The notes under the pieces were generated by a model. That model saw only the letters and a program-made list of their open reading frames with translations, was not told where the DNA came from and searched no databases. Position numbers and translations under genes: made by a program. This document shows positions 2,065 to 35,652 of a stretch of DNA of 46,942 nucleotides, in pieces. The stretch's first letter is position 1. Each line of letters opens with the position of its first letter. Where the stretch lies: positions 1 through 46,942 of the forward strand of contig JACQZQ010000002.1 in assembly GCA_016213785.1 (NCBI GenBank). Reading direction: 5' to 3'. The DNA comes from Acidobacteriota bacterium (GTDB lineage: Bacteria; Acidobacteriota; Blastocatellia; Chloracidobacteriales; JADJPF01).

Positions 2065-2843
2065 ATTTTCTCTCCTTTAAGAAAGGGCTATTACCCAATT
2101 ATTTCTAGACTTATTTTGATTAATTAATTATTAACCATTGTGTTTAATTTAACATAAAACCATATAAGTTTTTCACGTAATTTATTTACTTATGTATTTT
2201 CAATAGCTTACGAGATTTATTTTTTTGATCTATTTCAGATCAATTAATAAAATAGTTAATTTATACTTTTTTATAGTACTTATCTTGTGCAACTACACTT
2301 AATATCCCTTGCTAGATCAGTAGAAATTAGGATCAACTAATTAGAACAATTAAAAGTTTCGGGATTTTTTAGCAAAAATTTTCTGTTTTCTGTGACAAAT
2401 CAACTTTTTGCAAACGGCTACATTTAGAAAGGGATAAGTTTAAGTAAGTCATGTTGCAGTAAAGTTGCAGTCTTTTATTAAAAGGATATACAAAACTAGT
2501 GCCAACTTTTTTATTACATAACCTACTTCCCCTATTAAAACCCTAAAACCCTGTCACAAATCAACTTAATTGCTAGGCTTGCTCTAATACTTTTCAAATG
2601 GATCTGTTGTGTTGGAAGAAAGCTTGGAATATATATAGATTGTTTTATTAGTAGGTTTGCTGCTTAGGGTATTGCCAATTTATTTCTAACATACCCCATT
2701 TTTTAGTGTTACTAAAGCTTAATATTTGAGAACTTATTGCAAAGAAATAACTCTTAAAAAAGCAGGAAAATTTAACCATAGAGGAAATAAGGAACACCTT
2801 TTTAGAACAACTTGGAAAGTAACAAACTAAGTATTGATTCAAG

Positions 2844-2870
2844 ATAAATAATCATAAATAATCATAAATA
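2844..2870. repeat. 10-nt tandem repeat (ataaataatc) x ~2.7 in intergenic region
   Basis: Direct reading of 2844-2870. Confidence 0.85.
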
Positions 2871-2998
2871 GCAATGAATACAATAAGATAAACCTACAAG
2901 AGTTAACTAATCTTTAAGCTTACACAAATATAGGCATAGTGATTGCTAAAATAAAATTTTAACCAACCAAAACAAGCTTTAATCATAAGGAGAAAGAT

Positions 2999-3328
2999 AT
3001 GGGCTATGCAAAAGAAAGTACTTATTTTAGAGTTAATAACAACTTATTTATAGATGCTAGTTTGCAGGAATTAACTCAAAGCTATCTAAATAATGAACAA
3101 ATAGCCCTAAACAATCTTAAAAAAGCATTGGAAAACAAAGATTTTAATACTCTCTTTACCATAGGGGATCAACTTTATGGACATGGCTATAGCTTTGGTT
3201 TTCCTGTTATTAGTGAGTTGGGCAAAAATATTGAACTTGCTGCTACAGCTAGAGACTTTTCTCACCTTAATGAGTTAATTGGTTCTCTTAGTTTTTACTT
3301 AGATAATATTAACATTGTTTACCTTTAA
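2999..3328 (+). CDS. hypothetical protein (weak resemblance to a helical HPt-like fold)
   Basis: 109 aa ORF with a strong RBS (AAGGAGAAAGATATG). The segment '...LFTIGDQLYGHGYSFGF...' is only loosely HPt-like, so the function call is not supported. Confidence 0.4.
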   Translation: MGYAKESTYFRVNNNLFIDASLQELTQSYLNNEQIALNNLKKALENKDFNTLFTIGDQLYGHGYSFGFPVISELGKNIELAATARDFSHLNELIGSLSFYLDNINIVYL

Positions 3329-3368
3329 GCTATGACCAAATCTTTTTATAAAACTTAAGCCTTAGTGC

Positions 3369-3638
3369 TTAAGTTTTTATTAAAGAATTAGAGTTTCTTT
3401 CTTTTTTAATTTTTTTATAAGATTCTTTTACCTCAACTATTGCCTTAAATGTATTAAATAGCCCAAAAATGATAATGCCATGATGGCCTTTTAGGCTAAG
3501 ATATTTTAAGTCATTATCAAGAGATTCATACGCTTCACTTAATCCTGCTAGAAACAATATAATAGATACTACTAGCTCTAAATGAATTTTTCCTAATATA
3601 TTTTTTGGACTATCTAATTGTTTTTCTTCGCTACTCAT
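3369..3638 (-). CDS. small hypothetical membrane protein
   Basis: 89 aa ORF with two hydrophobic stretches (LELVVSIILFLAGL; HGIIIFGLFNTF) and an AGGAAAG RBS-like element upstream. Confidence 0.35.
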   Translation of the reverse strand: MSSEEKQLDSPKNILGKIHLELVVSIILFLAGLSEAYESLDNDLKYLSLKGHHGIIIFGLFNTFKAIVEVKESYKKIKKERNSNSLIKT

Positions 3639-3728
3639 TATATTTTCTTTCCTATTATCTTAGAACCAATATAGTTTGGTCAGAGAGTCAAATCTAAAGT
3701 AAGCTTACTTGCAAGTTTTTGCTATTAA

Positions 3729-5646: not shown

Positions 5647-6021
5647 ATGGAGTTTCATCCGGTTTGTAAATTTAGCGATATTGGTCTAGGTGAAGCTAAA
5701 GCTGCTGTGGTTGCAGGTCATTCAGTAGCAATATTTAATGTTAGAGGAAAGCTTTATGCTATTGAAAATATTTGTCCTCATATGGCTGCCCCGCTTGATG
5801 ATGGCTCTTTAGATGGAACTAAAGTTACTTGTCGCTTGCATTTTTGGGAAATAGATGTAACCAGTGGAAAATGTGTAGAACCTGATAATGGCCGTTGTGT
5901 AGCTACTTTTCCAGTTAAAGTTGAACGTGGGACTATAAAAGTGGGAATTGAGGAAATAAAAGCTGATGTTTCTGATGTTTCTGATGTTTCTGATGAAAAC
6001 TTTGATAAATTTTTACCTTAA
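5647..6021 (+). CDS. Rieske [2Fe-2S] ferredoxin-like protein (NirD / dioxygenase-ferredoxin type)
   Basis: Rieske ligand boxes 'CPHM' (CxH) and 'CRLHFW' (CxxH) with correct spacing, in a 124 aa protein. The C-terminus carries a (DVS)3 acidic repeat. Confidence 0.75.
   Translation: MEFHPVCKFSDIGLGEAKAAVVAGHSVAIFNVRGKLYAIENICPHMAAPLDDGSLDGTKVTCRLHFWEIDVTSGKCVEPDNGRCVATFPVKVERGTIKVGIEEIKADVSDVSDVSDENFDKFLP
5965..5994 (+). repeat. in-frame 9-nt tandem repeat (gatgtttct)x3 encoding (DVS)3
   Basis: Direct reading of 5965-5994 within the 3' end of the Rieske-ferredoxin gene. Confidence 0.9.
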
Positions 6022-7159: not shown

Positions 7160-8128
7160 CTAGCACTCTGATAACTGTTGCAGCAAATCATACCAGCATT
7201 TTTCTTCTCTAACAGGGTCAATTAAATATGCTGCTTTCGCACAACTATTTTTTAATTCTTGATAAAAATTAGCATCCATTTCAGCTTTTAAGAATAGATT
7301 TTTAAGAGTCTCTGTATCTGCAACAGAAAAATAACCTGGATAATCTTCTCCTAATGTTGCAACTAGGCTAGGTATATTAGTAGTTATTACAGGGGTTTTG
7401 CTAGCAAGCGCTTCACATAAAACATTTGACCCACCTTCTAAGCGGGATGTAATAGATATTAAATTTGCCTCAGCTATTGCTTGCAAGGTTTTCTCATAAG
7501 AAAATCCTCCTAAATAATGGTAACGGGAGTTTTCTTTTTGAGCTAAATTTATTCTTTCTCTATATTCTGGATTAAGTGGTATTCCTATATGAAAAACCTG
7601 AATTTTTGATTCCGTTGGTAACAGTTTACTTGCTAAAGCAGTACGTAGAGGGTCTTTTTCTGGTCGAAAGTTTGCCACTACTAGAATATTGAAATTATCT
7701 TTAGAAAATACTTCTAACACTTCTCTAGAATTAAAACTAGTAGTTACTGACTGATAAATAACCCTAGTTTTATTTCTTAGATGTGGGGCTAACTCTTCTA
7801 ATGCTTGTTTTTGTAAGACAACTAAGCGAGTAGCGTAATGTAGGGATTGGCAAGCCTCTTCGCTAAATTTAATATGCTGATAAATATCTGTACCAGTTAG
7901 CATAACTACTAGAGGGCGATTAGGATAAAGCTCATAAAAATGCTTAATAGAATTAAAACTACGTAAAGCATGAAGAGCAATCATTAAATCTATGTCTTCG
8001 CCATTATATTCTTTGCTAGTAGATATTTGGTGTCCAAGTTTAGTAATAATTTGCTCAAGACGTAGGGCAGTAATATGATTACCATTAATTAAATCTGCGC
8101 TTGATGGGGTAATAAGTTTAATTTTCAT
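7160..8128 (-). CDS. GT-B fold glycosyltransferase (family-1-like); candidate selenosugar synthase SenB-like by context
   Basis: 322 aa protein with the two-Rossmann-domain layout and C-terminal 'E...GG' type nucleotide-sugar region typical of GT-B glycosyltransferases. It is co-directional with selD and separated by 36 nt. Confidence 0.65.
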   Translation of the reverse strand: MKIKLITPSSADLINGNHITALRLEQIITKLGHQISTSKEYNGEDIDLMIALHALRSFNSIKHFYELYPNRPLVVMLTGTDIYQHIKFSEEACQSLHYATRLVVLQKQALEELAPHLRNKTRVIYQSVTTSFNSREVLEVFSKDNFNILVVANFRPEKDPLRTALASKLLPTESKIQVFHIGIPLNPEYRERINLAQKENSRYHYLGGFSYEKTLQAIAEANLISITSRLEGGSNVLCEALASKTPVITTNIPSLVATLGEDYPGYFSVADTETLKNLFLKAEMDANFYQELKNSCAKAAYLIDPVREEKCWYDLLQQLSEC

Positions 8129-8433
8129 TTATTTATAACCTGTTAAAAAGAGTATCAAAAATCTAGTAGGTTTGTTAATAAGAAATGGCTTAAATTGCTC
8201 TATTGTGCATTCTATAGCTAATTTTTTCTCAACCCAACTGTGTAAAATTCCACTACAAATAGCCCTTAAAATCTATGTCTAGCATTTTCTAGTAATTAGA
8301 AGGGTTTTTCTTATGGCATATAGTTTGCCTAAATCCAAAAACAAGCTTTACATAACTTTTTAGTTCTGCCCATAGCATTAAAGACAGAAGAATTTTTTAT
8401 AGAAATTATCTTTGGTCAGATGAGGGTGTGAAG

Positions 8434-10347
8434 ATGTTAAAAGTGGAAGTGCCAAAAGAAAATTACCATCAAGAGTTAGTTTCTTGCCAAATGGCTTGTC
8501 CAGTTCATACAGATGCTAGAGGTTATGTTAGAGCAATTGCTGAAGGGCGTTTTGAAGAAGCATATTTAATTGCTCGTGGGCCAAATCCTTTTGCTTCAAT
8601 CTGTGGTCGTATTTGTGGCGCTCCTTGTGAAGTAGCTTGTCGTAGAGGAAAAATTCCCCGTCTAGATGATGATGGCAATTTTATTGCTTGGGATAGACCT
8701 ATTTCTATTAGAGCATTAAAACGATTTGCTTGTGAACAATTTGGGCCAGATATACGACCTACTCAAGAAGTTCTAGAAAATATTAAATCTTATATTCCTA
8801 AAATTGCTGGCAACAGTGAAGAAATAGCCGCACTTCTTCAAGCCAGTATCTCTAAAAAATTAATTAAAGCCAGTGGAGAAAAAATAGCAATTATTGGAGC
8901 AGGGCCAGCAGGGCTATCAGCCGCTCATGACCTAGCTTTAATGGGTTTTTCTCCTGTTGTTTTTGAAACTGAACCTGTTGCAGCAGGGATGCTTGCTCTA
9001 GGAGTTCCTGCCTATAGACTTCCTCGTGATTTAATTGTTCGTGAAATTGAAGTAATTAAAGCACTTGGAGTAGAGATTTGTTGTAACACTACTATTGGTA
9101 GAGATATTTCTTTTGCCAAACTTCGCAAGAATTTTGCTGCGGTCTTAATTGCTGTTGGAGCAAAGTCTTCTCGTAGCTTAAACCTTCCTGGTGAACAAGG
9201 CCCAAGAGTTTATGGCGCTGTAGATTTATTAAGGGCTGTTTCCTTAGGCGAGTCTTTAAATATAGGCCAAGATATTGTGGTTATTGGCGGTGGAAATGTT
9301 GCTTATGATGTTGCTAGAACTGTATTAAGACAAATTGCTTATGATGTAGCTCGTACTGCTAAACGCCTTACTTCTATTTCACAGGTTTGGCTAGTTTCTT
9401 TAGAAAGCCTAGAGGAAATGCCTGCCGATACACTAGAAATCCTAGAAGGGGATGAAGAAGGCATTATACGAATGAATGGTTGGGGGCCTTTAGAAATACT
9501 TCGTAGTGAAAACGGTAGTGTAAAGGGGGTAACTTTTAAGCGTTGCCTACAGGTTTATGATGAAAATAAACGCTTTGCCCCTGTTTTTGATGACAATGTT
9601 TGCCAAACTATTTCTTGTGACACAGTTTTACTTGCAGTAGGCCAAAGCCCCAATCTTTCTTTTCTTAAAGATGGAGGAAGCGATATAGAAGAATTTCGCC
9701 CCTCTTGGCCTAAAGTAAACCCTCAAAGTCTTTCTACTACAGCTAAAGGAGTGTTTGTTGCTGGAGATTTAGCTCATGGAACAAGACTTTTAATTGATGC
9801 TGTTGCTTCTGGAAAAAAAGCGGCTCGCTCTATTTATGAGTACCTAACAGGGCGTAGTCTAACCCTAGAATCTACTACTGCTCATATTGTTCAAGATAAT
9901 TATAGGCGTGAAGCTGGTTATGAAAATATTCCTAGAGTAGAAATTCCAGTACTTGAAGCAGAAGAAAGACTTCATCATCCAGATACAGTTGTTGAAAAGG
10001 GTTATAGCTTTGAACAAGCAATTAGAGAAGCCTCACGTTGTTTAGATTGTGGTGTAACACCTGTATTTGATGGAAACCGTTGTGTTTTATGTGGTGGTTG
10101 TGCTGATGTTTGTCCTACTGATTGTCTAAAGCTTGTTTCTTTATCAGAGATAATTCCTACTACAGAGCTAAATACAACAATTAATAATAGTTTAGGCCAA
10201 GATCAAGCCCTAAACCTAGATGAACATTCTGCAATCTTAAAAGATGAGGATAGATGTATTCGCTGTGCTTTATGTGAGATGCGTTGCCCTGTTGATGCAA
10301 TAACTATGGAGAGAGTAACTTTTTCAACTCTTTGGAGGTCACAATGA
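8434..10347 (+). CDS. GltD-like FAD/NAD(P)-binding iron-sulfur oxidoreductase with C-terminal 2x[4Fe-4S] ferredoxin domain; putative NAD(P)-linked subunit of a Rieske/cyt b complex
   Basis: The N-terminus 'CQMACPVHTD...NPFASICGRICGAPCEVACRRG' matches the GltD small-subunit Fe-S region. Two dinucleotide folds are present ('IAIIGAGPAGLSAAHDLA'; 'VVIGGGNVAYDVARTVLRQ'), and the C-terminus carries 'CLDCGV...CVLCGGCADVCP' and 'CIRCALCEMRCP'. The listed start 8428 is GTG; the ATG at 8434 has a GAGGGTG RBS. Confidence 0.85.
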   Translation: MLKVEVPKENYHQELVSCQMACPVHTDARGYVRAIAEGRFEEAYLIARGPNPFASICGRICGAPCEVACRRGKIPRLDDDGNFIAWDRPISIRALKRFACEQFGPDIRPTQEVLENIKSYIPKIAGNSEEIAALLQASISKKLIKASGEKIAIIGAGPAGLSAAHDLALMGFSPVVFETEPVAAGMLALGVPAYRLPRDLIVREIEVIKALGVEICCNTTIGRDISFAKLRKNFAAVLIAVGAKSSRSLNLPGEQGPRVYGAVDLLRAVSLGESLNIGQDIVVIGGGNVAYDVARTVLRQIAYDVARTAKRLTSISQVWLVSLESLEEMPADTLEILEGDEEGIIRMNGWGPLEILRSENGSVKGVTFKRCLQVYDENKRFAPVFDDNVCQTISCDTVLLAVGQSPNLSFLKDGGSDIEEFRPSWPKVNPQSLSTTAKGVFVAGDLAHGTRLLIDAVASGKKAARSIYEYLTGRSLTLESTTAHIVQDNYRREAGYENIPRVEIPVLEAEERLHHPDTVVEKGYSFEQAIREASRCLDCGVTPVFDGNRCVLCGGCADVCPTDCLKLVSLSEIIPTTELNTTINNSLGQDQALNLDEHSAILKDEDRCIRCALCEMRCPVDAITMERVTFSTLWRSQ

Positions 10348-10823
10348 CAGAAGAATCACCAAAAAAATCACGCCTTGATCCAGAACCAATTGCACGTAGA
10401 GATTTCTTAGGTCTATCAGCGCTATTTGCTGCTGCTTCAACTTTGTTTTTTGCTTTATTAGGAATGCTAAAGCTACCTAAAACAGCCGTGCTTTCTTCAC
10501 CATCAAAGAAATTTCCTGTTGTTTTGCCAGATTCTCTAGCTACTGGTGAGGCTTTTATTCCTCAAGGGCGCTCAGTAGCAGTATTTCGTGATGAAAAAGG
10601 AGTTTATGCTATCTCTACTATATGCACTCATTTAGGGTGTGTAGTGAAAAATAATCCAGAAGGTTTTGAATGTCCTTGTCATGGATCAAGATTTTCTGTT
10701 GATGGCACTGTTACTAAGGGGCCAGCACCTCGTCCATTACCTTGGCTAAAAGTAACAAGAAATGGTGATAAATGGCTTGTAGATGAAACTACTATTGTTA
10801 CTCCAGGAACTAAAGCTACATAG
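10344..10823 (+). CDS. Rieske iron-sulfur protein (bc1/b6f type) with Tat signal
   Basis: Twin-arginine motif 'RRDFLGLSALFAAAS', and Rieske boxes 'CTHLGC' and 'CPCHGS'. The ATG at 10344 overlaps the upstream stop as ATGA and is preceded by GGAGG; the listed 10332 is TTG. Confidence 0.9.
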   Translation: MTEESPKKSRLDPEPIARRDFLGLSALFAAASTLFFALLGMLKLPKTAVLSSPSKKFPVVLPDSLATGEAFIPQGRSVAVFRDEKGVYAISTICTHLGCVVKNNPEGFECPCHGSRFSVDGTVTKGPAPRPLPWLKVTRNGDKWLVDETTIVTPGTKAT

Positions 10824-10831
10824 GTGATCTT

Positions 10832-12391
10832 ATGAGTACAAATACAACAAATCAAAACCGCTCAGGATTAGAAAAGTTTTGGGATAACCTTCGCGCTCTT
10901 CCAGAGTACTTTCGCGGTACTGCTTTTAGAACAGGTGTTCCAAATACAGACCGTACTCGCTCTAGTTTTGTATTTGGAAATCTATTTCTACATCTGCACT
11001 CTGTTAGAACTCATTTGTGGAGCTTAAAGTGGTCTACAACTATGGGGCTTGGAATTATAACTACGGCAGCTTTTTTAATTACATTAATAACAGGCGTATT
11101 ACTAATGTTTTATTACAAGCCTTATCCAGATGTAGCTTATCTCTCAATGAAAGATATTCATTTTGTTGTTCCTACAGGCCGTTTTATAAGAAATATTCAT
11201 CGCTGGGCAGCTAATATAATGGTGGTAACAGTAATTCTACATATGGCAAGGGCTTTTTATACTGCTGCCTACCGTAAACCAAGAGAATTTAACTGGTTAA
11301 TGGGAATTGCTCTATTAGCTATTACTCTAGCAATGTCTTTTACTGGCTATTTACTCCCTTGGGATCAGCTAGCTTATTGGGCAATTACTATCGGCGCTAA
11401 TATTGCCCAATCGCCTAGAGAATTAACTGATGCCCTAGGTCTAACTGAATATATTGACCCAGGTGGATTAATTCGGTTATTACTACTTGGCTCTGATAAT
11501 GTTGGGCCAGAGGCTTTAATTAGATTTTATTTACTCCATATTATGATTTTGCCTTTGATACTTGCAATGTTAATGGGGGTACATTTTTGGCGAATCCGTA
11601 AAGATGGAGGACTTGCACGTCCTGTTGATGCTGAAAGTAGGCTTGGAGTCTTACCTACAAATACTTATCCTGTTTTTACCCAAGCTCCAGCAAAAACTTA
11701 TCAGCTTGCAGCAGTTGTAAAGGGTCGAACTCCTTTGGTTGGGCGTGGGCCAGAGTCTACTGTGCCATCAATGCCACATTTATTTTATGCAGAACTAGCA
11801 GTACTAATGTTTACAGTCTTTATCTGTGTAACTCTAGCTCTAATTTCTGATGCTCCGTTAAAAGAATTAGCTAACCCTTCTGTTCCAGAAAACCCAGCAA
11901 AAGCCCCTTGGTACTTTTTAGGTTTACAAGAGCTAGTATCTTTTTCTGCTTTTATGGGAGGAATTGGTATTCCAACTATTGTAATGATTGGGCTTGGGCT
12001 AATTCCTTTTCTAGATCGTGAAGAAAATGGTACAGGTGAATGGTTTGGGGGAACAGGAGGTTTAGATGTAGTTAAAAGAGCTACTTTTATAGGCTTAGCT
12101 GTTCCAATTTTTATTGAAACCATTGCTATTTCTTTTGGCTGGATTAGAGAATGGTTTCCTCAAACTCCTCAAATAATTGTGACTTTTATTAATCCAGCAA
12201 CAATTATCACGCTAGCTTATGCGCTTTACTCTATTTACTTAGTAAGACGTTATAACTCAACCCGAGCAGGTGCATTAGGTTTATTTACCTGCTTTTTATG
12301 TGGGTTTTTAGTTTTAACCATTATTGGGACTTATTTTCGTGGGCCAAATTGGGTGTTTTATTGGTCGCCTTTAGATTGGCCTAAACATTAA
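10832..12391 (+). CDS. cytochrome b (fused cyt b N-terminal plus subunit-IV-like C-terminal region, extra TM helices)
   Basis: Cyt b heme-ligand and Qo-region signatures are present: 'GNLFLHLHSVRTHLW', 'RNIHRWAANIMVVTVILHMARAFY', 'TGYLLPWDQLAYWA'. The 519 aa protein is multi-TM and has an AGGTGAT RBS. Confidence 0.9.
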   Translation: MSTNTTNQNRSGLEKFWDNLRALPEYFRGTAFRTGVPNTDRTRSSFVFGNLFLHLHSVRTHLWSLKWSTTMGLGIITTAAFLITLITGVLLMFYYKPYPDVAYLSMKDIHFVVPTGRFIRNIHRWAANIMVVTVILHMARAFYTAAYRKPREFNWLMGIALLAITLAMSFTGYLLPWDQLAYWAITIGANIAQSPRELTDALGLTEYIDPGGLIRLLLLGSDNVGPEALIRFYLLHIMILPLILAMLMGVHFWRIRKDGGLARPVDAESRLGVLPTNTYPVFTQAPAKTYQLAAVVKGRTPLVGRGPESTVPSMPHLFYAELAVLMFTVFICVTLALISDAPLKELANPSVPENPAKAPWYFLGLQELVSFSAFMGGIGIPTIVMIGLGLIPFLDREENGTGEWFGGTGGLDVVKRATFIGLAVPIFIETIAISFGWIREWFPQTPQIIVTFINPATIITLAYALYSIYLVRRYNSTRAGALGLFTCFLCGFLVLTIIGTYFRGPNWVFYWSPLDWPKH

Positions 12392-12426
12392 AGTAGATAT
12401 AAAACTAAAGATATGAAAGCAAAACT

Positions 12427-14076
12427 ATGGATAAAAACAAATATTTATTACTATGGTCAAGTTTTGCTGCTTTTATAGTGCTAGTAATTGCTGCACTTAG
12501 TGATAACTATTGGAAAGATTGGCAGCAAATTCAAAAAAATGCCCGTGCTGATGGTAAAACAATAGATGTTAAGTTAAGGCAAATTGTAATTCCTGAATTA
12601 AACACAACTGACCGTTGTGTAAGTTGCCATGTCAGTATGGCACCAGGCGAGCAAGCTATGACAGGGCATAATGCTTTGTTAGCCCATAAATCAGTAGTCC
12701 ATGACACTAGTAGCTTTGGTTGCACTATCTGTCACGGTGGTCAAGGGCTAGCAACAGAAAAAGATGATGCTCATGGCAATGTGCATTTTTGGCCTGAGCC
12801 AATGTTGCCTAAAGAGTTTAGCTATGCTGGCTGTGGCACCTGTCATACACCTTTAAGTGTTCCTAACTTAAATACCTTAACTAAAGGGAAAACTTTAATT
12901 GAGCGCTATGATTGTTTAGCCTGTCATCGAATGGATGGTAGAGGCGGTACTATACGCCCTGATGGCGGTGGAATGGAGGGTAATGACCTCTCTTATATTG
13001 GGATTAAAGGTTATGACTTAGCTTGGTATTCAAAGCATATAAATAATCATAATGAAGCTCAAACAGGTACTTGGAGAAACTCTTTTGGGGAAATTTCTGA
13101 GGATGACCAGAAAAATATTGCTAGCTTTCTCTCTACCCGCATTGGTGCGCCTAAGCTAATAGAAGCTAAGGCGCTTTTTAACTCTTTAGGTTGTATGGGT
13201 TGTCATAAAGTAAATGGCGTAGGGGGTGATGCTGGAGCAGACCTTTCTCGAATAGGTTTTAAGGATCCTGGTCAGCTAGATTTTTCTAATGTTACTGCTC
13301 AACATACTTTAGCAAACTGGCTGGCAGAACATTTTCGCTCACCTATTTCTTTAGTTGCAGGCTCTCAAATGCCTGCAATGGGGCTTTCTGAAAAAGAAAT
13401 AGAGCTACTTACAATGTATGTACTTTCTTTGCGGCGTAGGGAACTCCCTAGCAGCTTTTCACCTAAAGACCGTGCAAAGGTAATTCAGTTTAAGGAAAGA
13501 GAATTTGCTACAGATGGCAGAACGCTCTATGGAACATTTTGTGCAAGTTGTCATGGTAGAAATGGAGAAGGTGCACGCTATCCAAATACACAAGCTTTTC
13601 CTGCAATTGCTAGCCCAGATTTTTTAGCTATAGCATCTGATGAGTTTATTTCAAACACTATCCGCAAGGGGCGTGCTGGAAGGCGTATGGCTCCTTGGGA
13701 AAAAGATGGCGGGCTAAAGCCAAATGAAATAGAAGCTATTACTAAACATCTTCGAGAACTGGGTAAAACGTCGTTTACTCCAGAAATAACTCCACCTCGT
13801 TGGGTTAAAGGTGATGCTAATTTAGGTAGTCGTCTTTATAAAGCTAATTGTAGCGGCTGTCATGGCTTAAAAGGCCAAGGTGGAGAAGGGCCAGCACTTA
13901 ATAATAAAGAGTTTCTTGGTAGCGCTACAGATACTTTTCTAGTTCAAACTATTACTAAAGGTCGTCGCAATACCCCAATGGCAGGTTTTGAAAACCCATC
14001 ACCTATACGCCAAGCGCTTTCACAAAAAGAAGTAGAGGCGATTGTTACCCATATTCGCAACTGGAAAGGAGAATAG
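12427..14076 (+). CDS. membrane-anchored heptaheme c-type cytochrome
   Basis: It has an N-terminal TM helix and seven CxxCH motifs (CVSCH, CTICH, CGTCH, CLACH, CMGCH, CASCH, CSGCH). The first four are tightly spaced (NapC/NrfH-like tetraheme style). The last three sit in class-I-like monoheme domains with downstream Met ligands ('MPAMG', 'RRMAPW', 'NTPMAGF'). Confidence 0.9.
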
Positions 14077-14077
14077 T

Positions 14078-17000
14078 ATGGAGAAGTCAATTTCTAGAAG
14101 AGATTTTCTTAAAAGTGTTACTGCTGCCGGGTTTGGTGCTCTAGTTGCTACTAGCGTTGGAGCTTGGGGGCTAGAAAAAATTACTAATCCATTAGCTATT
14201 TATCCAAACCGAGATTGGGAAAAAGTTTACCGTGATTTATGGAAGCACGATTCTAAATTTACTTTTCTTTGTGCGCCTAATGATACACATAACTGTATTC
14301 TTAACGCTTATGTACGGTCTGGTGTGGTAACTCGTATTGGGCCAACAATGCGTTATGGAGAGGCTACAGACTTAGCAGGAAATAGTACTAGCCACCGTTG
14401 GGATCCTAGAATCTGTCAAAAAGGTCTAGCCCTAACACGTAGGTTTTATGGAGACCGTAGAGTTAATGAATGTATGGTGCGAGCAGGGTTTAAGCGTTGG
14501 TATGAAGCTAACTTTCCTCGTGGTCAAGATGGACTACCACCACGTGAATATTTCCAGCGTGCTAGAGATGAATGGGTAAGGATGTCCCACGATGAAGCAG
14601 CAAAAATTGTTGCAGCCGCATTAAAAAACATTGCTGAAACTTATACAGGTGAAAAAGGTAAACAACTTCTTAAAGCTCAACATTATGATGAGGCTACCAT
14701 TGAGGCTACTCAAGGTGTAGGCACTCAAGTTCTAAAATTCCGAGGAGGAATGCCGCTACTTGGTATTACTAGAGTCTTTGGGCTTTATCGAATGGCTAAT
14801 TCTATGGCTCTACTTGATGACCATATTCGTAAAGTTGGCGCAGATAAAGCAGTTGGTGGTAAAGGTTTTGATAACTACTCTTGGCACACAGACTTACCTC
14901 CAGGTCATCCAATGGTAACAGGTCAACAAACTGTAGAGTTTGATCTTTGTGCAGTTGAGCAGGCTAAAACTCTAGTAGTTTGGGGGATGAACTGGATTAC
15001 TACAAAAATGCCTGATTCCCATTGGTTAACCGAAGCACGTATGAAAGGCACTCGTATAGTGGTAATTGCTTGTGAGTATTCTGCTACTGCTACTAAAGGC
15101 GATGATGTTGTAGTTGTTAGACCAGGAACAACTCCTGCACTAGCCTTGGGTTTTGCCCATGTCATTATGAGAGATAAGCTTTATGACCTTGAATATGTAC
15201 GCCAATGGACGGACTTACCCATTCTAGTACGTATGGATAGCTTAAAATATTTACGTACTGAAGAAGTTTTTGGACAAAAGGCAGCAGAACTTACTAATCA
15301 AACCAGAATCTTAAAAGAAGGTGAAAAAGAACCTCCTGCCGCTCAACAAAGCGAGATGCTAATTTCAGAAAAAATGCGTCAGGAATGGGGTGACTACCTT
15401 TGGTGGGATCAAACTTCTAATAGCCCAAAACAACTTACTCGTGACCAAGTAGGTAAACAATCAAAAGTTGGAGAGGCTTTATTAGAAGGCACTGTAGAAG
15501 TAACTTTAGCAGATGGAAAAAAGGTTCGTTGTCGTCCAGTTTTTGATTTAGTAAAAGAATATGCTGCACATTTTGACCCTAAAACTACTGAAGAAATAAC
15601 TTGGGCACCCGCTAAGGCTGTAGAATCTCTTGCACGTCTTTTTGCTAAAGAACCAGGTACAACGCTTTTTGCAATTGGAATGGGGCCAAATCAATTTTTT
15701 AATAATGATAATAAGGATAGAGATATTTTCTTACTCGCAGCACTTACAGGAAATGTAGGAAAAATTGCAGGAAATGTTGGTTCTTATGCAGGTAATTACC
15801 GTGTAGCGCTCTTTAATGGTTCTCCTCAGTATATTAATGAAAACCCATTTGATATTGAACTAGACTCTTCAAAGCTTGCTAGAGTAAAACAATATTGGAG
15901 GGCTGAATCAGCGCATTATTATAACCATGAAGACCATCCATTAAGGGTTGGTAATAAATTACTTACAGGTAAAACTCATATACCTACCCCAACAAAATCA
16001 CTTTGGTTTGCAAATGCTAATTCAATACTTGGTAATGTGAAATGGCATTACAACACAGTAGTTAATGTGTTACCTAGAATTGAAATGATTGCTGTCCAAG
16101 AATGGTGGTGGTCAACTTCTTGTGAATGGGCAGATATAGTTTTTGGGGTAGATTGTTGGGCAGAACTAAAACATCCTGATATGACTGCCTCTGTAACAAA
16201 CCCATTTTTACAAATCTTTCCTCGAACACCTTTACCAAGAGCTTTTAATACTTTAGGGGATATTGAAGTACTTGCACTAGTGTCCTCTAAGTTAGCTGAC
16301 CTAACAAAAGATAATCGTTTTAATGATTATTGGAAATTTGTTAAAGAAGATAAAACTAGTATTTATTTACAAAGGATTTTAGACACTTCAACTAACACTA
16401 AAGGCTATAAGATTGAAGAGCTTGAAGCTAAAGCTAAAGAAGGTATTCCTGCTTTAATGAATAGCCGAACTACACCAAAAGTAGTTGGTTATGAACAAAT
16501 TGAAGATTCCCGCCCTTGGTACACTAAGAGCGGACGGCTAGAGTTTTATCGTGAAGAGGATGAGTTTATTGAAGCAGGAGAAAACTTACCTGTTCATCGT
16601 GAGCCTGTAGACTCAACTTTTTATGAGCCTAATATAATTATTGCTCCAAAACATGAGGCTATTCGTGCTGCTAGCCCAGAAAGTTATGGAGTTAAACGAG
16701 ATGATCTTTCTTGTGAGACTCGTTGTGGGCGTAATGTAGTTTTAAGTTGGGCAGAAGCTAAAAACACTAAACATCCGCTTGCTAAAGATGGATTTAAGTT
16801 TGTTTTTCACACTCCTAAATATAGACATGGTTCACACACTACGCCAATTGATACAGATATGGTGGCGGTACTTTTTGGCCCATTTGGAGACCTTTACCGA
16901 CATGACAAGCGCAAACCTTTTGTTACAGAGGGCTACGTAGATATTAACCCAGAAGATGCTCGTGAAATTGGTGTTGAAGATGGTGATTATGTTTGGCTTG

Positions 17001-17512
17001 ACCCTGATCCAGAAGATCGCCCTTTTCGAGGATGGCAAAAAAACTCTAAAGATTATGCTTTTGCTCGTCTGCTTTGTAGAGCACGTTATTATCCTGGGAC
17101 ACCTAGAGGAGTAACTAGGATGTGGTTCAATATGTATGCCGCTACTCCAGGCTCTATGGAAGGGCAAAAGACCCGCCAAGATGGTTTAGCAAAAAATCCT
17201 CGTACTAATTACCAGGCAATGTTTCGCTCAGGTTCTCATCAATCAGCAACTCGTGGTTGGTTAAAGCCTACCTGGATGACTGACTCTTTAGTTAGAAAAG
17301 GACTTTTTGGACAAGGTATAGGAAAAGGGTTTTTACCTGATGTCCATTGTCCAACAGGTGCCCCTCGTGAAGCAGTAGTTAAAATTACTAAAGCTGAGCC
17401 AGGCGGTATCAATGGACAAAAGCTTTGGCGACCAGCAGCGCTAGGTATTCGCCCACGTTATGAATCCGAAGCAATGAAAAAATATCTAGCAGGGGAATTT
17501 ATTAAAAAATAA
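14078..17512 (+). CDS. Tat-exported molybdopterin (bis-MGD) oxidoreductase alpha subunit, NarG/NxrA-like (type II DMSO-reductase family)
   Basis: The true start is ATG 14078 (AAGGAGAATAGT ATG; the upstream 12 codons of the track ORF lack an RBS). Tat motif '[26 protein letters not shown]'. The 1156 aa length matches periplasmic NxrA/NarG-clade enzymes rather than ~900-980 aa Ser/Ebd/Clr/Pcr alphas. An N-terminal FeS motif 'C-APN-D-THN-C' is present, and NarH-, gamma- and TorD-like genes follow. Confidence 0.85.
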
Positions 17513-17572
17513 GACTGTTAGGGTAGATCTATAGATTTACCCTTCTTATAAAATCATAAAGGAGCAAAGAAA

Positions 17573-18700
17573 ATGGCACGCGTTTATAATTGGCAAATAG
17601 GTAGAGAGATGTCTTATTGGTATCCAGAAAGCCGACCAGAAAAACAGTTTGCCGCAGTATTTGATGTTAATAAATGTATTGCTTGTCAGACTTGTACTCT
17701 AGCCTGTAAAACTACTTGGACATCTGGACGTGGACAAGAGTATATGCTCTGGAACAATGTAGAGACTAAACCATATGGTTTTTATCCTCTAGCTTGGGAT
17801 CTTAATTTGTTAAATTCCTTACAGGGACAAGAATGGCAGGGTAATGTTTATCAAGGTCAAACCGTTTTTGAAGCAGCACCAGAGGGTGAAAGGGTTTTAG
17901 GTTGGCGACCAGAAGAAGAAGATTACTCTTATCCAAATGTTGGAGAAGATGATTGTGTAGGACAAATTGAAAATGGTGCAAGTCTAGAAGTTCCCCATAT
18001 GATGTGGTTTTATTATCTAGCACGTATTTGTAATCATTGTACCTACCCAGCATGTTTAGCTTCTTGTCCTAGAGGCTCAATTTACAAACGTCCTGAGGAT
18101 GGAATTGTGCTAGTAGATCAAAGCCGTTGCCGAGGTTATCAAGAATGTGTTAAGGGCTGTCCATATAAAAAAGTATTTTTTAACCCAATGACAGGCACAT
18201 CAGAAAAATGTATTGCTTGCTTTCCTAAAATAGAACAAGGTATTCAACCACAATGTTTTGTTAATTGTATAGGCAAAATTCGCCTTGCAGGATGGCTTTC
18301 TAAGCCTGATCAAGCAAACCCAGAAAACCCACTTGATTACTTAGTCCATATTAAGAAAATTGCATTACCACTTTTTCCACAATTTGGGTTAGAGCCTAAT
18401 ATTTACTATATTCCTCCTGTACATGTACCAACACATTTCTTAAAACAAATGTTTGGGCCTGGAGTAGATGAAGCTGTTAAACAATATCGTAATATGGCAC
18501 AGGATTTGGATTTAGCAGGGCTTTTAGCTTTATTTGGCTCAACAGAGTTTATTGTTCCTAGATGGAAACGCCAAGGTGATTTAGTAATAGGGATGAGTGA
18601 AAAAGGTAGCGAACTTATTAAAGTACCACTCCGTGAGCCTGTATATATTCGCTCAGCCTATGATTCTAAATTTTCTATTGCTCGTGTTAATTGTCCATAA
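17573..18700 (+). CDS. NarH/NxrB-like iron-sulfur beta subunit (four Fe-S clusters)
   Basis: '[38 protein letters not shown]' is the hallmark NarH/NxrB N-terminus. Further Cys clusters are '[14 protein letters not shown]', '[12 protein letters not shown]' and '[11 protein letters not shown]...CFVNC'. Confidence 0.9.
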
Positions 18701-18762
18701 AGCCTTCATATAAAGACATTTACTTGGATTTTAGCAAAAGTAGATAGAGTAGATAGGAGTAG

Positions 18763-19668
18763 ATGATTATGTTAAGGGCAAAATTTATATTGATTTTAAT
18801 AGTAACCTTGATTTTAAGCAGCAATTTATTGATTTTAAGTTGTCGTAGTGGCGAAGGCCCCGTTACAGCGGAAGTAGTAATTATCCCATCTGCTAATGTT
18901 CCGCTTGAACCAAATGCTCCTTTATGGAAAGGTATTCCTCGCCATTTAGCTAAATTAATACCTCAAGATTTAGTTGAACCAAGGCTTACAAAATCCTCTA
19001 CTGCTGAAGTAGAAGTAAAAGCTTTGTCTAATGGCACTCTAGTAGCTTTTCGCTTAGAGTGGCTAGACCCAGTAAAAAATGATTTACCAGGGCCAGCACG
19101 CTTTATTGATGGCTGTGCAATTCAAATTCCTTCTAAAATAGCTGCTAATGTTCCTGATCCTCAAATGGGACAAGAAGGTCAATCTGTAGAAATAACTTTT
19201 TGGCGTGCTGATTGGCAAGCAATTGTAAATGGCCGTAAAGACTCTATTAAGGAACTCTACCCTAATGCTACAATTGACCATTATCCTTATGAAGCAAAAC
19301 CTTTAGAAAAAGACCCTGCTCTACAAAGCGAAATGGCAAAACGTTATTCTCCTGCAAGAGCTTTAGGTAATGGTAGGGAAGGGCCAAGAGATTCAGCAGT
19401 AGAAGAATTAATTGCAGAAGGCCCAGGTTCTTTATCTCCATCACCTAACCCTACAGGAGCAAAAGGAAAAGGGCTATATAATAGTAAAGGATGGTCAGTT
19501 GTAATTTTACGTAATTTACCAAAAGACTTAAGCCCTAATAATAGATCTCAAGTCGCTTTTGCTATTTGGGAAGGAGCACATGGTGAGGTAGGAGCAAGAA
19601 AAATGCGTAGCGGTTGGGTGCCTTTACTTATGAAGGCAGAAGGGGAGTTAAGCAAAAATGTACAATAA
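18763..19668 (+). CDS. putative gamma subunit (NxrC / type-II DMSOR gamma-like, signal peptide, probable heme b)
   Basis: 301 aa protein with N-terminal signal/anchor 'MIMLRAKFILILIVTLILSSNLLILSC'. Its size and position after the alpha and beta genes match EbdC/SerC/NxrC-type gamma subunits. No c-type heme motif is present. Assignment is by context. Confidence 0.55.
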   Translation: MIMLRAKFILILIVTLILSSNLLILSCRSGEGPVTAEVVIIPSANVPLEPNAPLWKGIPRHLAKLIPQDLVEPRLTKSSTAEVEVKALSNGTLVAFRLEWLDPVKNDLPGPARFIDGCAIQIPSKIAANVPDPQMGQEGQSVEITFWRADWQAIVNGRKDSIKELYPNATIDHYPYEAKPLEKDPALQSEMAKRYSPARALGNGREGPRDSAVEELIAEGPGSLSPSPNPTGAKGKGLYNSKGWSVVILRNLPKDLSPNNRSQVAFAIWEGAHGEVGARKMRSGWVPLLMKAEGELSKNVQ

Positions 19669-20308
19669 AATTAACTATAAAGAATTCTTAGTTGAAGCTA
19701 CTGAGTGGAGGCTAATTAGTTTACTTTTTGAATGTCCAAAAGATGATTGGAAAAAGAAAGTAAAAATGCTAGCTAAAGAAGTTTTAGACCCTGACTTAAA
19801 AGATGCTGCTAAGTTTGCTTGCAAAGAAGCTACAGAAGGGCTTTATCACTCAATTTTAGGCCCAGGCGGCCCAGCACCCGCTCGCGAAATAAGTTACAGT
19901 GGTGGTTGGACACAGCCTGGTTACTTGATGTCAGAGCTAGATAGTTATTATCAAGCTTTTTCCTATCAACCTGTTACAAAAGAAACCCTTGATCATATTT
20001 CTGTAGAAACAGGTTTTATTAGTTATCTAAGGCTAAAAGAAGCTTATGCCTTAGAATGCGGTGCAATAGAGCAAGTAGAAATTACTTCTCAATCTGCTAA
20101 AACCTTTATAAATGAGCATTTAACTGTTATAGCCCAACCTTTAGCTGAAATAATGGAAAACCTAGAGGTTAGCTATTTAGAATATGCTGCAAAAGCTTTG
20201 TTTAAGCGTGTAGGGACTACTAAAAATAAACCCTTACCAATTTATCAAACATCTTTTCAAGAAAATGATAGCTGTGAGTTTAGTTGTAGTGTAGAAACAG
20301 AGGAGTAA
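19658..20308 (+). CDS. TorD/NarJ-like molybdoenzyme maturation chaperone (delta subunit)
   Basis: 216 aa helical protein overlapping the gamma gene by 11 nt. Its position and size match the NarJ/SerD/EbdD system-specific chaperones of type II molybdoenzymes. The call rests mainly on context. Confidence 0.55.
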   Translation: MYNKINYKEFLVEATEWRLISLLFECPKDDWKKKVKMLAKEVLDPDLKDAAKFACKEATEGLYHSILGPGGPAPAREISYSGGWTQPGYLMSELDSYYQAFSYQPVTKETLDHISVETGFISYLRLKEAYALECGAIEQVEITSQSAKTFINEHLTVIAQPLAEIMENLEVSYLEYAAKALFKRVGTTKNKPLPIYQTSFQENDSCEFSCSVETEE

Positions 20309-20323
20309 TTTTCTCTAAAAAAA

Positions 20324-20353
20324 TTAAGGATAGAGTAGTTTCTCTATCCTTAA
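20324..20353. terminator. bidirectional intrinsic-terminator-like hairpin between convergent operons
   Basis: 12-bp perfect stem ttaaggatagag / ctctatccttaa with a 6-nt loop. A run of A (20314-20323) lies on the plus strand, so this is a U-run for the minus-strand DUF885 gene transcript. Confidence 0.5.
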
Positions 20354-20389
20354 TCACAAAAATTGTAAAACTGTGTTTTAGAAAATAAT

Positions 20390-34083: not shown

Positions 34084-34150
34084 AAAATAAGTAGAAAGCG
34101 GTTTTATGGCTAATTTGGCTTTTGGTTATAGGAAATCGCAGGTAATAAAG

Positions 34151-35497: not shown

Positions 35498-35652
35498 AAT
35501 ACTAGTTGAAAATTCTAAAATGTTTTTCTGCTCTAAGCTATTAAGCCCCAAGCGCCCAGCCATAAATGGCAACGCTATTATCAACCGCCCCTTTGGGGCT
35601 TAAGATTAAGAATCTACATATCAGATTATATATTGCATAGTATTAAGCTATT

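Follow-up and report, generated by a model that had tools for sequence, protein, structure and literature searches.

Nitrite oxidoreductase (NXR) is usually encoded separately from bc-type complexes in the known nitrite oxidisers and in anammox bacteria, and at the anammox locus compared here (L084) the Rieske/cytochrome b (R/b) genes do not adjoin the NXR genes. The R/b-3 (Kuste4569-4574) and R/b-2 (Kustd1480-1485) complexes of Kuenenia stuttgartiensis combine a Tat-exported Rieske protein, a GltD/NfnB-like NAD(P) oxidoreductase with iron-sulfur clusters, a b6-type cytochrome b, an enlarged subunit IV and a multihaem cytochrome c replacing cytochrome f, and the R/b-3 operon closes with an N-oxide enzyme that is HAO-like. 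NxrABC of Kuenenia (PDB 7B04; also Nitrospira and Nitrospina) pairs a Tat-exported alpha subunit bearing an N-terminal C-x3-D-x3-C motif with an iron-sulfur beta and an EB_dh haem-b gamma. Haloarchaea possess a narB-narC-narGH cluster, and antimycin impairs their growth on nitrate (PMC7754194, PMC3509893), while a similar Nar and R/b model exists for Methanoperedens (PMC4683180). The cultured Thermogutta terrifontis R1 grows anaerobically with nitrate and carries TorD-'NarI'-NarH-NarG beside cyt c-cyt b-Rieske (THTE_1506-1512), the only Nar described for its genome (PMC5673643); its NarG falls in the NXR clade (PMC10732223).

We analysed a window of 46,942 nucleotides from an Acidobacteriota bacterium (contig JACQZQ010000002.1), in which an ORF scan finds exactly eight co-directional plus-strand ORFs from 8428 to 20308 (Table 1). 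The scan and the domain assignments agree with a preliminary description of this stretch on gene content and order, and also on the junctions it had listed: an ATGA overlap between the flavoprotein and Rieske genes (10344-10347), a 1-nt gap at 14077 between the cytochrome c and alpha genes, the latter beginning with ATG 14078, and an 11-nt overlap between the gamma and chaperone genes (19658-19668). The remaining gaps are 8 nt ahead of the cytochrome b gene at 10832, 35 nt ahead of the cytochrome c gene at 12427, 60 nt ahead of the beta gene at 17573 and 62 nt ahead of the gamma gene at 18763. The first ORF opens at GTG 8428, and ATG 8434, with GAGG 8 nt upstream, is the likelier true start. 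Positions 8129 to 8433 hold no regulator gene, unlike many related loci, and no FNR-box-like site was found there; promoter-like and terminator-like sites inside the operon do not exceed the shuffled expectation. The operon probably ends at the downstream hairpin, a likely bidirectional terminator, and from this layout the eight genes are predicted to be co-transcribed.

Table 1. Features of the operon and its borders, in window coordinates
Feature	Position	Strand	Basis
Intergenic, AT-rich, presumed promoter region	8129..8433	+	Sequence read; upstream of operon
GltD/NfnB-like FAD/NAD(P)-binding iron-sulfur flavoprotein, cytoplasmic; NAD(P) oxidoreductase subunit of R/b complex	8434..10347	+	Pfam Fer4_20, Pyr_redox_2, 2x Fer4
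Rieske [2Fe-2S] protein, Tat-exported, membrane-anchored	10344..10823	+	Pfam Rieske; ARRDFLG motif and TM helix
Cytochrome b: b6-type four-helix N-half fused to subunit-IV-like C-half, about 8-9 TM helices	10832..12391	+	Pfam Cytochrome_B
Heptahaem cytochrome c, periplasmic, membrane-anchored	12427..14076	+	7 CxxCH motifs and N-terminal TM helix; Cytochrom_C and CBB3 domains
Molybdopterin catalytic alpha, Tat-exported, NxrA / periplasmic-Nar branch	14078..17512	+	SRRDFLK motif; match to Kuenenia NxrA 7b04_B
Iron-sulfur beta, NxrB/NarH-like	17573..18700	+	Fer4_11 and TIGR03478
Haem-b gamma, EB_dh fold, NxrC/EbdC-like, N-terminal signal or lipobox-like sequence	18763..19668	+	PF09459
NarJ/TorD-type assembly chaperone	19658..20308	+	Weak TIGR03482 match, 26 bits
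Palindromic hairpin	20322..20355		14-pair stem then T run; between convergent genes, after last gene

As had been proposed, the R/b half resembles anammox R/b-2/-3, with the flavoprotein, the Rieske protein and both cytochrome b halves sharing 35-46% identity with the Kuenenia sp. R/b-3 locus. The flavoprotein, in which neither TM helix nor signal peptide was found, joins Fer4_20 and Pyr_redox_2 domains to two [4Fe-4S] sites, gives a PRK12771-like NCBIfam match (392 bits) and shares 35% identity with the R/b-3 NAD(P) subunit along its whole length; its top PDB matches, NfnABC-type 9bov/9bp5 and FwdF 5t5i, are the same structural homologues given for Kuste4570 (PMC12954380). The Rieske protein (38% identity) keeps its CTHLGC and CPCHGSxF boxes throughout the family and best matches two Rieske structures from Kuenenia, 9rk4 and 9rk3. 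The Ser/Tyr and Ser/Phe signatures of these structures agree with those of the Kuenenia Rieske proteins in PMC12954380, and the Ser/Phe signature of the operon's own Rieske cluster suggests a fairly high potential. Cytochrome b is 46% identical to R/b-3 b6 in its N-half and 44% identical to subunit IV in its C-half, with H-x13-H and H-x14-H pairs, a Qo-region NPAKAPWYFLGLQE motif identical in Kuenenia, and NCBIfam matches to ExtP (residues 49-261) and ExtQ (312-421). Seven haem motifs are present in the cytochrome c of all 66 full-length orthologues.

The molybdoenzyme half is closest among solved structures to Kuenenia NxrABC. Alpha matches Kuenenia NxrA over its full length with 816 bits, compared with partial matches of 120-165 bits to NarG, EbdA and PcrA, which upholds its earlier placement in the periplasmic NXR branch; its Tat motif is conserved throughout the family, and CAPNDTHNC and a second motif are kept in 80-81 of the 81 related loci. 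Beta scores 388 bits against Kuenenia NxrB (7b04_A), and Kuenenia NxrC is the top PDB match of gamma, whose hydrophobic N-terminus ends in LILSC. Two gamma residues, a Met (PQMG) and a Lys (RKMR), align with Kuenenia NxrC and EbdC and are conserved; by analogy with the EbdC structure they are putative haem ligands. The weak chaperone match is to the type-II DMSO-reductase chaperone family, and positional orthologues at other loci match PF02613 Nitrate_red_del (NarJ/TorD family).

Comparison with 81 related loci from species-representative genomes revealed that all 52 with complete coverage carry the eight genes in identical order and strand, and that no locus with sufficient upstream DNA lacks the first gene, a regularity beyond what chance would give. 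The arrangement is not rare but a fixed and widespread module. It is found again in numerous uncultured bacteria from soil and wastewater and occurs in Acidobacteriota, Planctomycetota, Binatia and Zixibacteria, with near-invariant cofactor motifs; a Thermoguttaceae MAG holds the full module with an alpha 83% identical to that of the window. Because its R/b part, homologous to Kuenenia R/b-3, occurs in non-anammox bacteria of these four groups, R/b complexes linked to NAD(P) are not the anammox peculiarity they had been taken for. Across loci, alpha identity to the window correlates with the identities of the other genes (Spearman 0.40-0.71). NXR-like genes free of bc genes do exist, as had been expected, among alpha relatives outside the clade: the next-nearest alpha clades, Gaiellaceae and SAR202, both lack Rieske/cytochrome b genes, so the fusion marks one alpha clade and the pairing is therefore derived and stable, more than a casual adjacency. 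Collectively, collinearity, co-varying identities and sister clades devoid of R/b genes indicate that the R/b and molybdoenzyme genes behave as one unit.

Nor is the arrangement wholly undescribed, as had been supposed, since seven of its eight genes were already given in this order for T. terrifontis (PMC5673643), where THTE_1506-1512 corresponds to genes 2-8 of the operon on the opposite strand. Its authors annotated a cytoplasmic NarGHI beside a conventional complex III and did not discuss the flavoprotein gene (expected THTE_1513); judged from gene order and the published tree, T. terrifontis is a probable member of the same clade. We found no description of the eight-gene module as a unit, papers naming the genes narGHI or "putative NXR". 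Among 58 related loci with flanks, an Rrf2 regulator lies directly upstream on the operon's strand in 27, and a RIC/YtfE di-iron repair protein above the NCBIfam cut-off in 20, a Crp/Fnr regulator in 19, a YwiC-like protein in 18 and MoaA in 9 lie nearby. These recurrent neighbours, which include no carbon-fixation or oxidase genes, look like an anaerobic or nitrosative-stress setting.

On balance, we lean towards a single respiratory module in which a dedicated quinol-oxidising R/b complex is wired to a periplasmic NXR-type nitrate reductase. We infer a physical association of the two halves, and likewise the direction of electron flow, the substrate and the action of the flavoprotein. The Qo site of the b6-type cytochrome b would oxidise (mena)quinol, the first electron passing to the Rieske cluster and from there, via the membrane-anchored heptahaem c, the haem-b gamma and the iron-sulfur beta, to the molybdenum of alpha, where nitrate would be reduced to nitrite outside the cytoplasmic membrane. 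The second electron would cross the membrane via the b haems and either return to quinone in a Q cycle that generates pmf or be exchanged with the GltD/NfnB-like flavoprotein, which may couple NAD(P)+/NAD(P)H to the low-potential branch, a role already suggested for the homologous anammox R/b-2/-3. Against this reading, it is not obvious why a heterotroph would have to make NAD(P)H by bifurcation. For the NAD(P)H-generating bifurcation that has been suggested for the anammox complexes, the module may provide a culturable model.

We regard it as unlikely that the R/b half is instead a general complex III, serving oxygen respiration as well, that merely adjoins an NXR-type nitrate reductase, one of several acceptors, and shares its regulation, with neither an obligatory supercomplex nor a special NAD(P)-nitrate coupling. 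For T. terrifontis no complex III other than THTE_1510-1512 is listed, and this one is assigned also to the aerobic chain (PMC5673643); the domains at the end of the heptahaem c are class-I cytochrome c domains, a kind that docks to various partners. However, eight-gene collinearity with overlapping stop and start codons across several phyla, the complete absence of R/b genes from sister alpha clades and the co-variation of R/b gene identities with alpha argue against this view.

The preliminary description had left two directions of electron flow open, of which nitrate reduction fits the physiology and neighbourhoods better. More doubtful than the general complex III is uphill transfer, in which the enzyme oxidises periplasmic nitrite and a pmf-driven R/b complex pushes electrons to quinone and, via the flavoprotein, to NAD(P)+, so that the carriers would be nitrite oxidisers, perhaps facultative ones, that have gone unrecognised. 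The closest matches of alpha, beta and gamma are to a physiological nitrite oxidoreductase, a lithoautotroph whose donor sits at +430 mV would require a subunit that reduces NAD(P), and a putative NXR function has been proposed in two metagenomic papers for related Planctomycetota sequences (PMC10732223; bioRxiv 10.1101/2020.05.19.103440). Against this, we favour nitrate reduction because T. terrifontis, the sole cultured organism reported with this gene order, respires nitrate, because the genes that recur nearby are those for Rrf2, Crp/Fnr, RIC and Moco biosynthesis, and because the carriers appear to be heterotrophs; the gene content of the window itself gives no sign of lithoautotrophy. 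According to PMC8100337, Acidobacteriota MAGs from wastewater plants, unmatched to the loci here, represent organoheterotrophs that are facultatively anaerobic and encode narGHI and nrfAH. Weighing on the other side of the nitrate-reduction reading, NXR enzymes are reversible and their direction is not readable from sequence, Kuenenia NXR, the closest characterised relative of alpha, is physiologically a nitrite oxidase, and tblastn found no match to the recurrent flank families, including Rrf2 and RIC, anywhere in the window.

Least probable is another substrate (chlorate/perchlorate, selenate, or an organic compound as in Ebd-type dehydrogenases): type II DMSO-reductase enzymes are diverse in substrates, alpha reaches no curated NCBIfam equivalog cut-off and ExtP and ExtQ, the top NCBIfam matches of cytochrome b, belong to a selenite/tellurite reduction operon, but the full-length NxrA score is five to seven times that of PcrA, EbdA or NarG, the N-terminal C-x3-D-x3-C and WHTD region align with Kuenenia NxrA, the RIC and Rrf2 neighbours point to N-oxide chemistry and T. 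terrifontis physiology points to nitrate.

The module that we favour, a dedicated R/b complex joined to a nitrate reductase, has the same membrane-side subunit set as Kuenenia R/b-2 and R/b-3, although the flavoprotein gene comes first, b6 and subunit IV form a single polypeptide, the seven-haem cytochrome c has very little similarity to the hexahaem protein of Kuenenia, an NxrABC-type molybdoenzyme and its chaperone take the terminal place of the HAO-like octahaem protein, and the hosts are non-anammox bacteria. In addition, the cysteine for covalent haem ci that Kuenenia b6 has is missing from the whole family, so the electron path of the anammox complexes cannot be carried over as it stands. 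Compared with NxrABC, the NXR-type genes share one operon with a bc-type complex, gamma bears a lipobox-like signal, and the physiological direction is probably nitrate reduction. The haloarchaeal pNar cluster (narB Rieske, narC cytochrome b, narG, narH, orf7, narJ) and the Methanoperedens model rest on the same principle: a Tat-exported enzyme of Nar/NXR type, which faces outwards and has haem b in its third subunit, receives quinol electrons via R/b. They provide a precedent for an R/b complex feeding such a Nar. In haloarchaea, too, the R/b complex lies in the Nar cluster; there, however, the cytochrome b linked to Nar belongs to the Actinobacteria/Thermus type (PMC3509893), with neither a multihaem c nor an NAD(P) flavoprotein, whereas the complex described here is of the b6/anammox type and bacterial, so the association of Nar with R/b is probably an independent invention.

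An ORF scan of the window identified eight plus-strand reading frames extending from 8428/8434 to 20308, and together with the Pfam and NCBIfam assignments this bears out the gene content, order, co-directionality and junctions of the preliminary description. Adjacent frames overlap at two junctions, by ATGA at 10344 and by 11 nt at 19658, and the five junctions in between are spacers of 8, 35, 1 (at 14077), 60 and 62 nt, in this order; probable starts are the ATG codons 8434 (GAGG upstream), 10344 and 14078. A 14-pair hairpin lies directly 3' of the chaperone gene; apart from this hairpin, scans for FNR boxes, sigma-70 promoters and terminators returned nothing above shuffled expectation, and no tRNA or Rfam feature was found in the window. 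The 46,942-nt window has a G+C content of about 35%. In the operon (measured over 8001-20000) this value is 37.5-40% compared to 29-36% in the surrounding DNA, an excess that could stem from strong constraint on the amino-acid sequence or from lateral acquisition.

Features of the operon, of the remaining window and of variant loci
Feature	Sequence	Position	Strand	Properties
Gene 1, flavoprotein	window		+	Fer4_20, FAD/NAD(P) fold, two ferredoxin-type clusters, no TM helix, predicted cytoplasmic; GltD/NfnB-like (Pfam, NCBIfam, motif counts)
Gene 2, Rieske protein	window		+	ARRDFLG and one TM helix (motif counts)
Gene 3, cytochrome b	window		+	about 8-9 TM helices; N-half similar to b6/ExtP, C-half to ExtQ/subunit IV (Pfam, NCBIfam)
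Gene 4, cytochrome c	window		+	seven CxxCH, one N-terminal TM helix
Gene 5, alpha	window		+	molybdopterin subunit, 1144 aa, SRRDFLK
Gene 6, beta	window		+	Fer4_11
Gene 7, gamma	window		+	EB_dh; N-terminus hydrophobic, ends LILSC
Gene 8, chaperone	window		+	type-II DMSO-reductase chaperone family, weak score
AT-rich stretch	window	2065-3728		1.6 kb, about 29% G+C; no ORF ≥120 aa, short ORFs of 52-109 aa
Soluble Rieske-type ferredoxin	window	5647-6021	+	124 aa; Rieske, Rieske_2/NirD-like; 2.4 kb upstream of the operon, same strand
Protein of 514 aa	window	28819-30363		no Pfam match at E ≤ 0.01
Regulatory genes	window	34106-38782		sigma-54 response regulator, then PAS-rich HisKA_3 histidine kinase and LuxR/GerE response regulator, a pair of NarX/NarL-type architecture; 14 kb downstream of the operon
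Protein of 721 aa	window	43125-45290		no Pfam match at E ≤ 0.01
Extra gene between alpha and beta	L025	13438-13974		178 aa, several hydrophobic segments
Extra ORF between gamma and chaperone	L025	15979-16485		168 aa, hemerythrin-like by eye
ORF between alpha and beta	L086; also a SAR202-type locus	3636-4046 in L086		about 135 aa, seen in distant alpha clades
Truncated module	L004	11869-15500		genes 1-6, then unrelated opposite-strand genes after beta
Split alpha	L083	15618-19071		alpha called as two ORFs of 312 and 852 aa

Among solved structures, the best matches of alpha, beta and gamma were NxrA, NxrB and NxrC of the Kuenenia nitrite oxidoreductase (NXR), at 816, 388 and 58 bits, respectively. 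The alpha alignment to NxrA (7b04_B) spanned residues 17-1155, whereas the other type II enzymes PcrA, EbdA and E. coli NarG gave partial matches of 165, 139 and about 120 bits, and the TIGR01580 narG model scored 139.7 bits against a cut-off of 1084. SRRDFLK occupies residues 6-12 of alpha and its RR motif is kept in 80 loci; the beta N-terminus is not hydrophobic and is predicted from motifs to lack a signal, which fits hitch-hiker export with the Tat-bearing alpha. The alpha motif CAPNDTHNC aligns with the Kuenenia FS0 motif CSPNDTHAC, and the alpha Asp region aligns with Kuenenia WHGDQAPGHP; each recurs unchanged in 80-81 of 81 loci, and from the published structures we take them to be metal ligands. 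Gamma scored 63.8 bits against PF09459; its Met (PQMG) and Lys (RKMR) line up with the corresponding residues of Kuenenia NxrC and EbdC, are conserved in related loci and, as in the EbdC structure, are presumably haem-b ligands. Cytoplasmic NarGHI is ruled out by the Tat signal of alpha, by the scores and by the lack of a NarI, the third subunit being a soluble EB_dh protein. Because neither a cytoplasmic-NarG placement nor a spurious Tat motif holds, alpha is predicted to be a periplasmic enzyme of the NXR or outward-facing Nar (pNar) type, in the NxrABC-like branch of type II DMSO-reductase enzymes, and its initial description as a Tat-exported member of the NarG/NxrA clade stands.

Turning to the Rieske/cytochrome b (R/b) half, the best PDB matches of the Rieske protein were 9rk4 and 9rk3, which the Ser/Tyr and Ser/Phe signatures together with PMC12954380 identify as Kuste4569 and Kustd1480. 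Those of the flavoprotein were NfnABC (9bov/9bp5) and FwdF (5t5i), and 9bp5 and 5t5i are also the structural homologues given for Kuste4570, the NAD(P) reductase subunit in anammox bacteria (PMC12954380). For direct comparison we used L084, the R/b-3 locus of a Kuenenia sp., which encodes a Rieske protein, an NAD(P) oxidoreductase, b6, subunit IV, a hexahaem cytochrome c and an HAO-like protein. The flavoprotein aligned over its full length with the Kuenenia NAD(P) subunit (residues 3-637 against 1-572; 35% identity, 303 bits), and the Rieske protein was 38% identical to its R/b-3 counterpart. The N-half of cytochrome b shared 46% identity with b6, with the H-x13-H and H-x14-H pairs present, and its C-half 44% with subunit IV, the NPAKAPWYFLGLQE motif being identical; between the cytochromes c we observed a weak local match only. 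The module differs from Kuenenia R/b-3 in gene order, in carrying b6 and subunit IV as one fused polypeptide instead of two separate ones, and in having seven haems in its cytochrome c as opposed to six. A further difference concerns the haem ci cysteine, where Kuenenia b6 reads TWCMGG and the window protein STTMGLG; none of 67 family members has Cys at the haem ci/cN position, around residues 66-77 of the window protein. In Kuenenia and cyanobacterial cytochrome b6 this cysteine binds haem ci. Despite its absence, the cytochrome b is otherwise b6-like, and its Qo-region motif is the same as that of Kuenenia.

We then assessed how widely the module is distributed. Alpha has at least 120 database clusters at ≥79% identity among the matches listed, with MAG names from Acidobacteriota, Blastocatellia, Bryobacteraceae, Pirellulales, Planctomycetota and Zixibacteria, and a scan limited to one genome for each GTDB species returned 583 stretches with an alpha relative, the best 80 of which were 74-94% identical. 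When the eight window proteins were compared by tblastn with these best 80 loci and one Planctomycetota MAG locus, all eight genes were found in every sufficiently long locus except L004, which is without gamma and chaperone. Order and strand were identical in 52 of 52 complete loci, and the flavoprotein gene was never absent where a locus had more than 5.8 kb upstream. Cofactor motifs were near-invariant (the Rieske boxes, both RR motifs, CAPNDTHNC, the gamma Met/Lys and the cytochrome b His pairs), seven haem motifs were present in 66/66 cytochrome c orthologues, and per-gene identity tracked alpha identity (Spearman 0.40-0.71). Chance adjacency of the two halves is ruled out by the collinearity of the complete loci. 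The fused arrangement is widespread, and any view of it as rare is wrong.

The next-nearest full-length alpha clades, from Gaiellaceae (54% identity), SAR202/Chloroflexota (45%) and a third clade (41%), lie in alpha-beta-(gamma)-chaperone clusters from which R/b and flavoprotein genes are absent. Given this absence and the conservation of the module, the fusion is a derived, stable trait of a single widely distributed clade. Loci from different phyla are as similar to one another as loci from the same phylum, which suggests that the module may have spread laterally. A representative search for alpha yielded mostly fragments; Gaiellaceae, SAR202, Tectomicrobia, Halorussus and Thermincola were the full-length clusters that carried a name, and reference nitrite oxidisers were not among them.

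Several loci depart from the common layout. Two additional genes lie within the module in a Pyrinomonadaceae/'Chloracidobacterium' subgroup; they are described for L025, and the spacing is similar in L020, L028, L032, L035 and L046. The absence of gamma and chaperone in L004, a MAG labelled 'uncultured Clostridia', could be a true deletion variant or an assembly join, and the split alpha of L083, on a 3.27-Mb contig of a long-read assembly, probably reflects a frameshift error or a pseudogene. L004, L008, L059 and L077 come from MAGs labelled Clostridia, Bifidobacteriaceae and Bordetella; their modules share 78-86% identity with the acidobacterial one, and the labels are probably artefacts of mis-binning or mis-classification during co-assembly projects that do not name the real hosts.

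The putative reaction of alpha-beta-gamma is nitrite oxidation or nitrate reduction, for which the physiology of Thermogutta terrifontis provides indirect support. The sequence itself does not give the direction; we favour nitrate reduction as the likelier of the two on three indirect lines, namely T. terrifontis physiology, the neighbouring genes and precedents for R/b complexes coupled to pNar. T. terrifontis R1 respires nitrate, and its TorD, 'NarI', NarH and NarG genes (THTE_1506-1509) adjoin those for cytochrome c, cytochrome b and Rieske protein (THTE_1510-1512) (PMC5673643), in the same relative order as genes 2-8 of the window operon. The supplement of that paper confirms the numbering and roles of THTE_1510-1512 and does not annotate THTE_1513, and T. 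terrifontis NarG falls in the NXR clade (PMC10732223). A Thermoguttaceae MAG (L006) has the complete module, with an alpha 83% identical to that of the window; a search started from the flavoprotein of this MAG gave no isolate among the best 120 matches listed (75-98% identity), which were MAG or unnamed proteins throughout. Across the 58 loci with flanks, an Rrf2 regulator lies directly upstream in 27, the iron-sulfur repair protein RIC/YtfE (above the NCBIfam cut-off) occurs in 20, a Crp/Fnr regulator in 19 and a YwiC-like protein in 18, with MoaA, MobA and MoeA as further recurrent neighbours. This set suggests anaerobic N-oxide respiration and nitrosative stress as opposed to lithoautotrophy. 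The window itself carries no member of these recurrent families (Rrf2, RIC, Crp/Fnr, YwiC and others); housekeeping-like genes flank its operon. R/b complexes that feed an outward-facing Nar have been described in haloarchaea (PMC7754194, PMC3509893), and a comparable model has been put forward for Methanoperedens (PMC4683180).

Our main explanation, to which we give slightly better than even chances, is that a quinol-oxidising R/b complex supplies an NXR-type periplasmic nitrate reductase, the two forming one respiratory module. Quinol would be oxidised at the Qo site of cytochrome b. One electron would pass from the Rieske cluster to the heptahaem cytochrome c and on along gamma, beta and alpha to nitrate; the other would move over the b haems and either go back to quinone or enter an exchange with NAD(P)(H) via the flavoprotein. 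A more tentative proposal, which we consider rather doubtful, is that periplasmic nitrate/nitrite chemistry is coupled directly to cytoplasmic NAD(P)(H) via the R/b complex, through bifurcation or its reverse; in the bifurcation variant, nitrate reduction would pull the second electron up to NAD(P)+. In the main model, the Rieske signature CPCHGSxF (Ser/Phe, as in Kustd1480), read from sequence in 62 of 64 loci, would fit a large driving force on the low-potential branch; potentials above +300 mV were measured for the two Kuenenia Rieske proteins (PMC12954380). Quinol-driven NAD(P)+ reduction by bifurcation, put forward by Kartal et al. as recounted in PMC12954380, is still a hypothesis even in anammox bacteria. 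If direct coupling were true, the anammox R/b mechanism, proposed since 2013 and never demonstrated, would operate in many non-anammox species, one of them culturable, with its high-potential partner reaction fixed by the operon itself.

The preliminary description had treated the NAD(P)-linked R/b complex as an anammox peculiarity, a view that must be widened: homologous multihaem complexes are widespread in Acidobacteriota and Planctomycetota of soil, sediment and wastewater. There they are hard-wired to one terminal enzyme, providing the untested anammox NAD(P)H bifurcation hypothesis with a defined partner reaction and, in Thermogutta, possibly with a culturable test system. Annotation is affected as well, as surveys score these alphas by KO as narG (denitrification potential) or nxrA (nitrification potential), and the choice alters nitrogen-cycle inferences for very abundant lineages. 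The same genes have been annotated narGHI by KO (PMC8100337) and given as Nar beside complex III in T. terrifontis (PMC5673643), and similar genes have been called "putative NXR" (PMC10732223; bioRxiv 10.1101/2020.05.19.103440). Neither the eight-gene unit nor its anammox R/b link turned up in the searchable literature, which does not extend to subscription journals.

A bacterial R/b complex that feeds a periplasmic nitrate reductase would be a counterpart, probably independent, of the haloarchaeal R/b-pNar system, and would run against the textbook view that bacterial Nar bypasses the bc complex. The haloarchaeal cluster, like the module, combines a Rieske protein and cytochrome b with a Tat-NarG, NarH, a haem-b protein and NarJ (PMC7754194, PMC3509893); however, its NarC-type cytochrome b is of the Actinobacteria/Thermus type (PMC3509893), whereas that of the window is of the b6/anammox type. 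As the cytochrome b types differ and bacterial Nar is held to bypass the R/b complex (PMC3509893), the bacterial module is likely a different solution of independent origin. Collectively, NxrABC-type enzymes are already known, as are R/b complexes of the anammox type with an NAD(P) link and the R/b-pNar clusters of haloarchaea; what appears to be new, no description having been found in the searchable literature, is the joining of the first two in a single eight-gene module.
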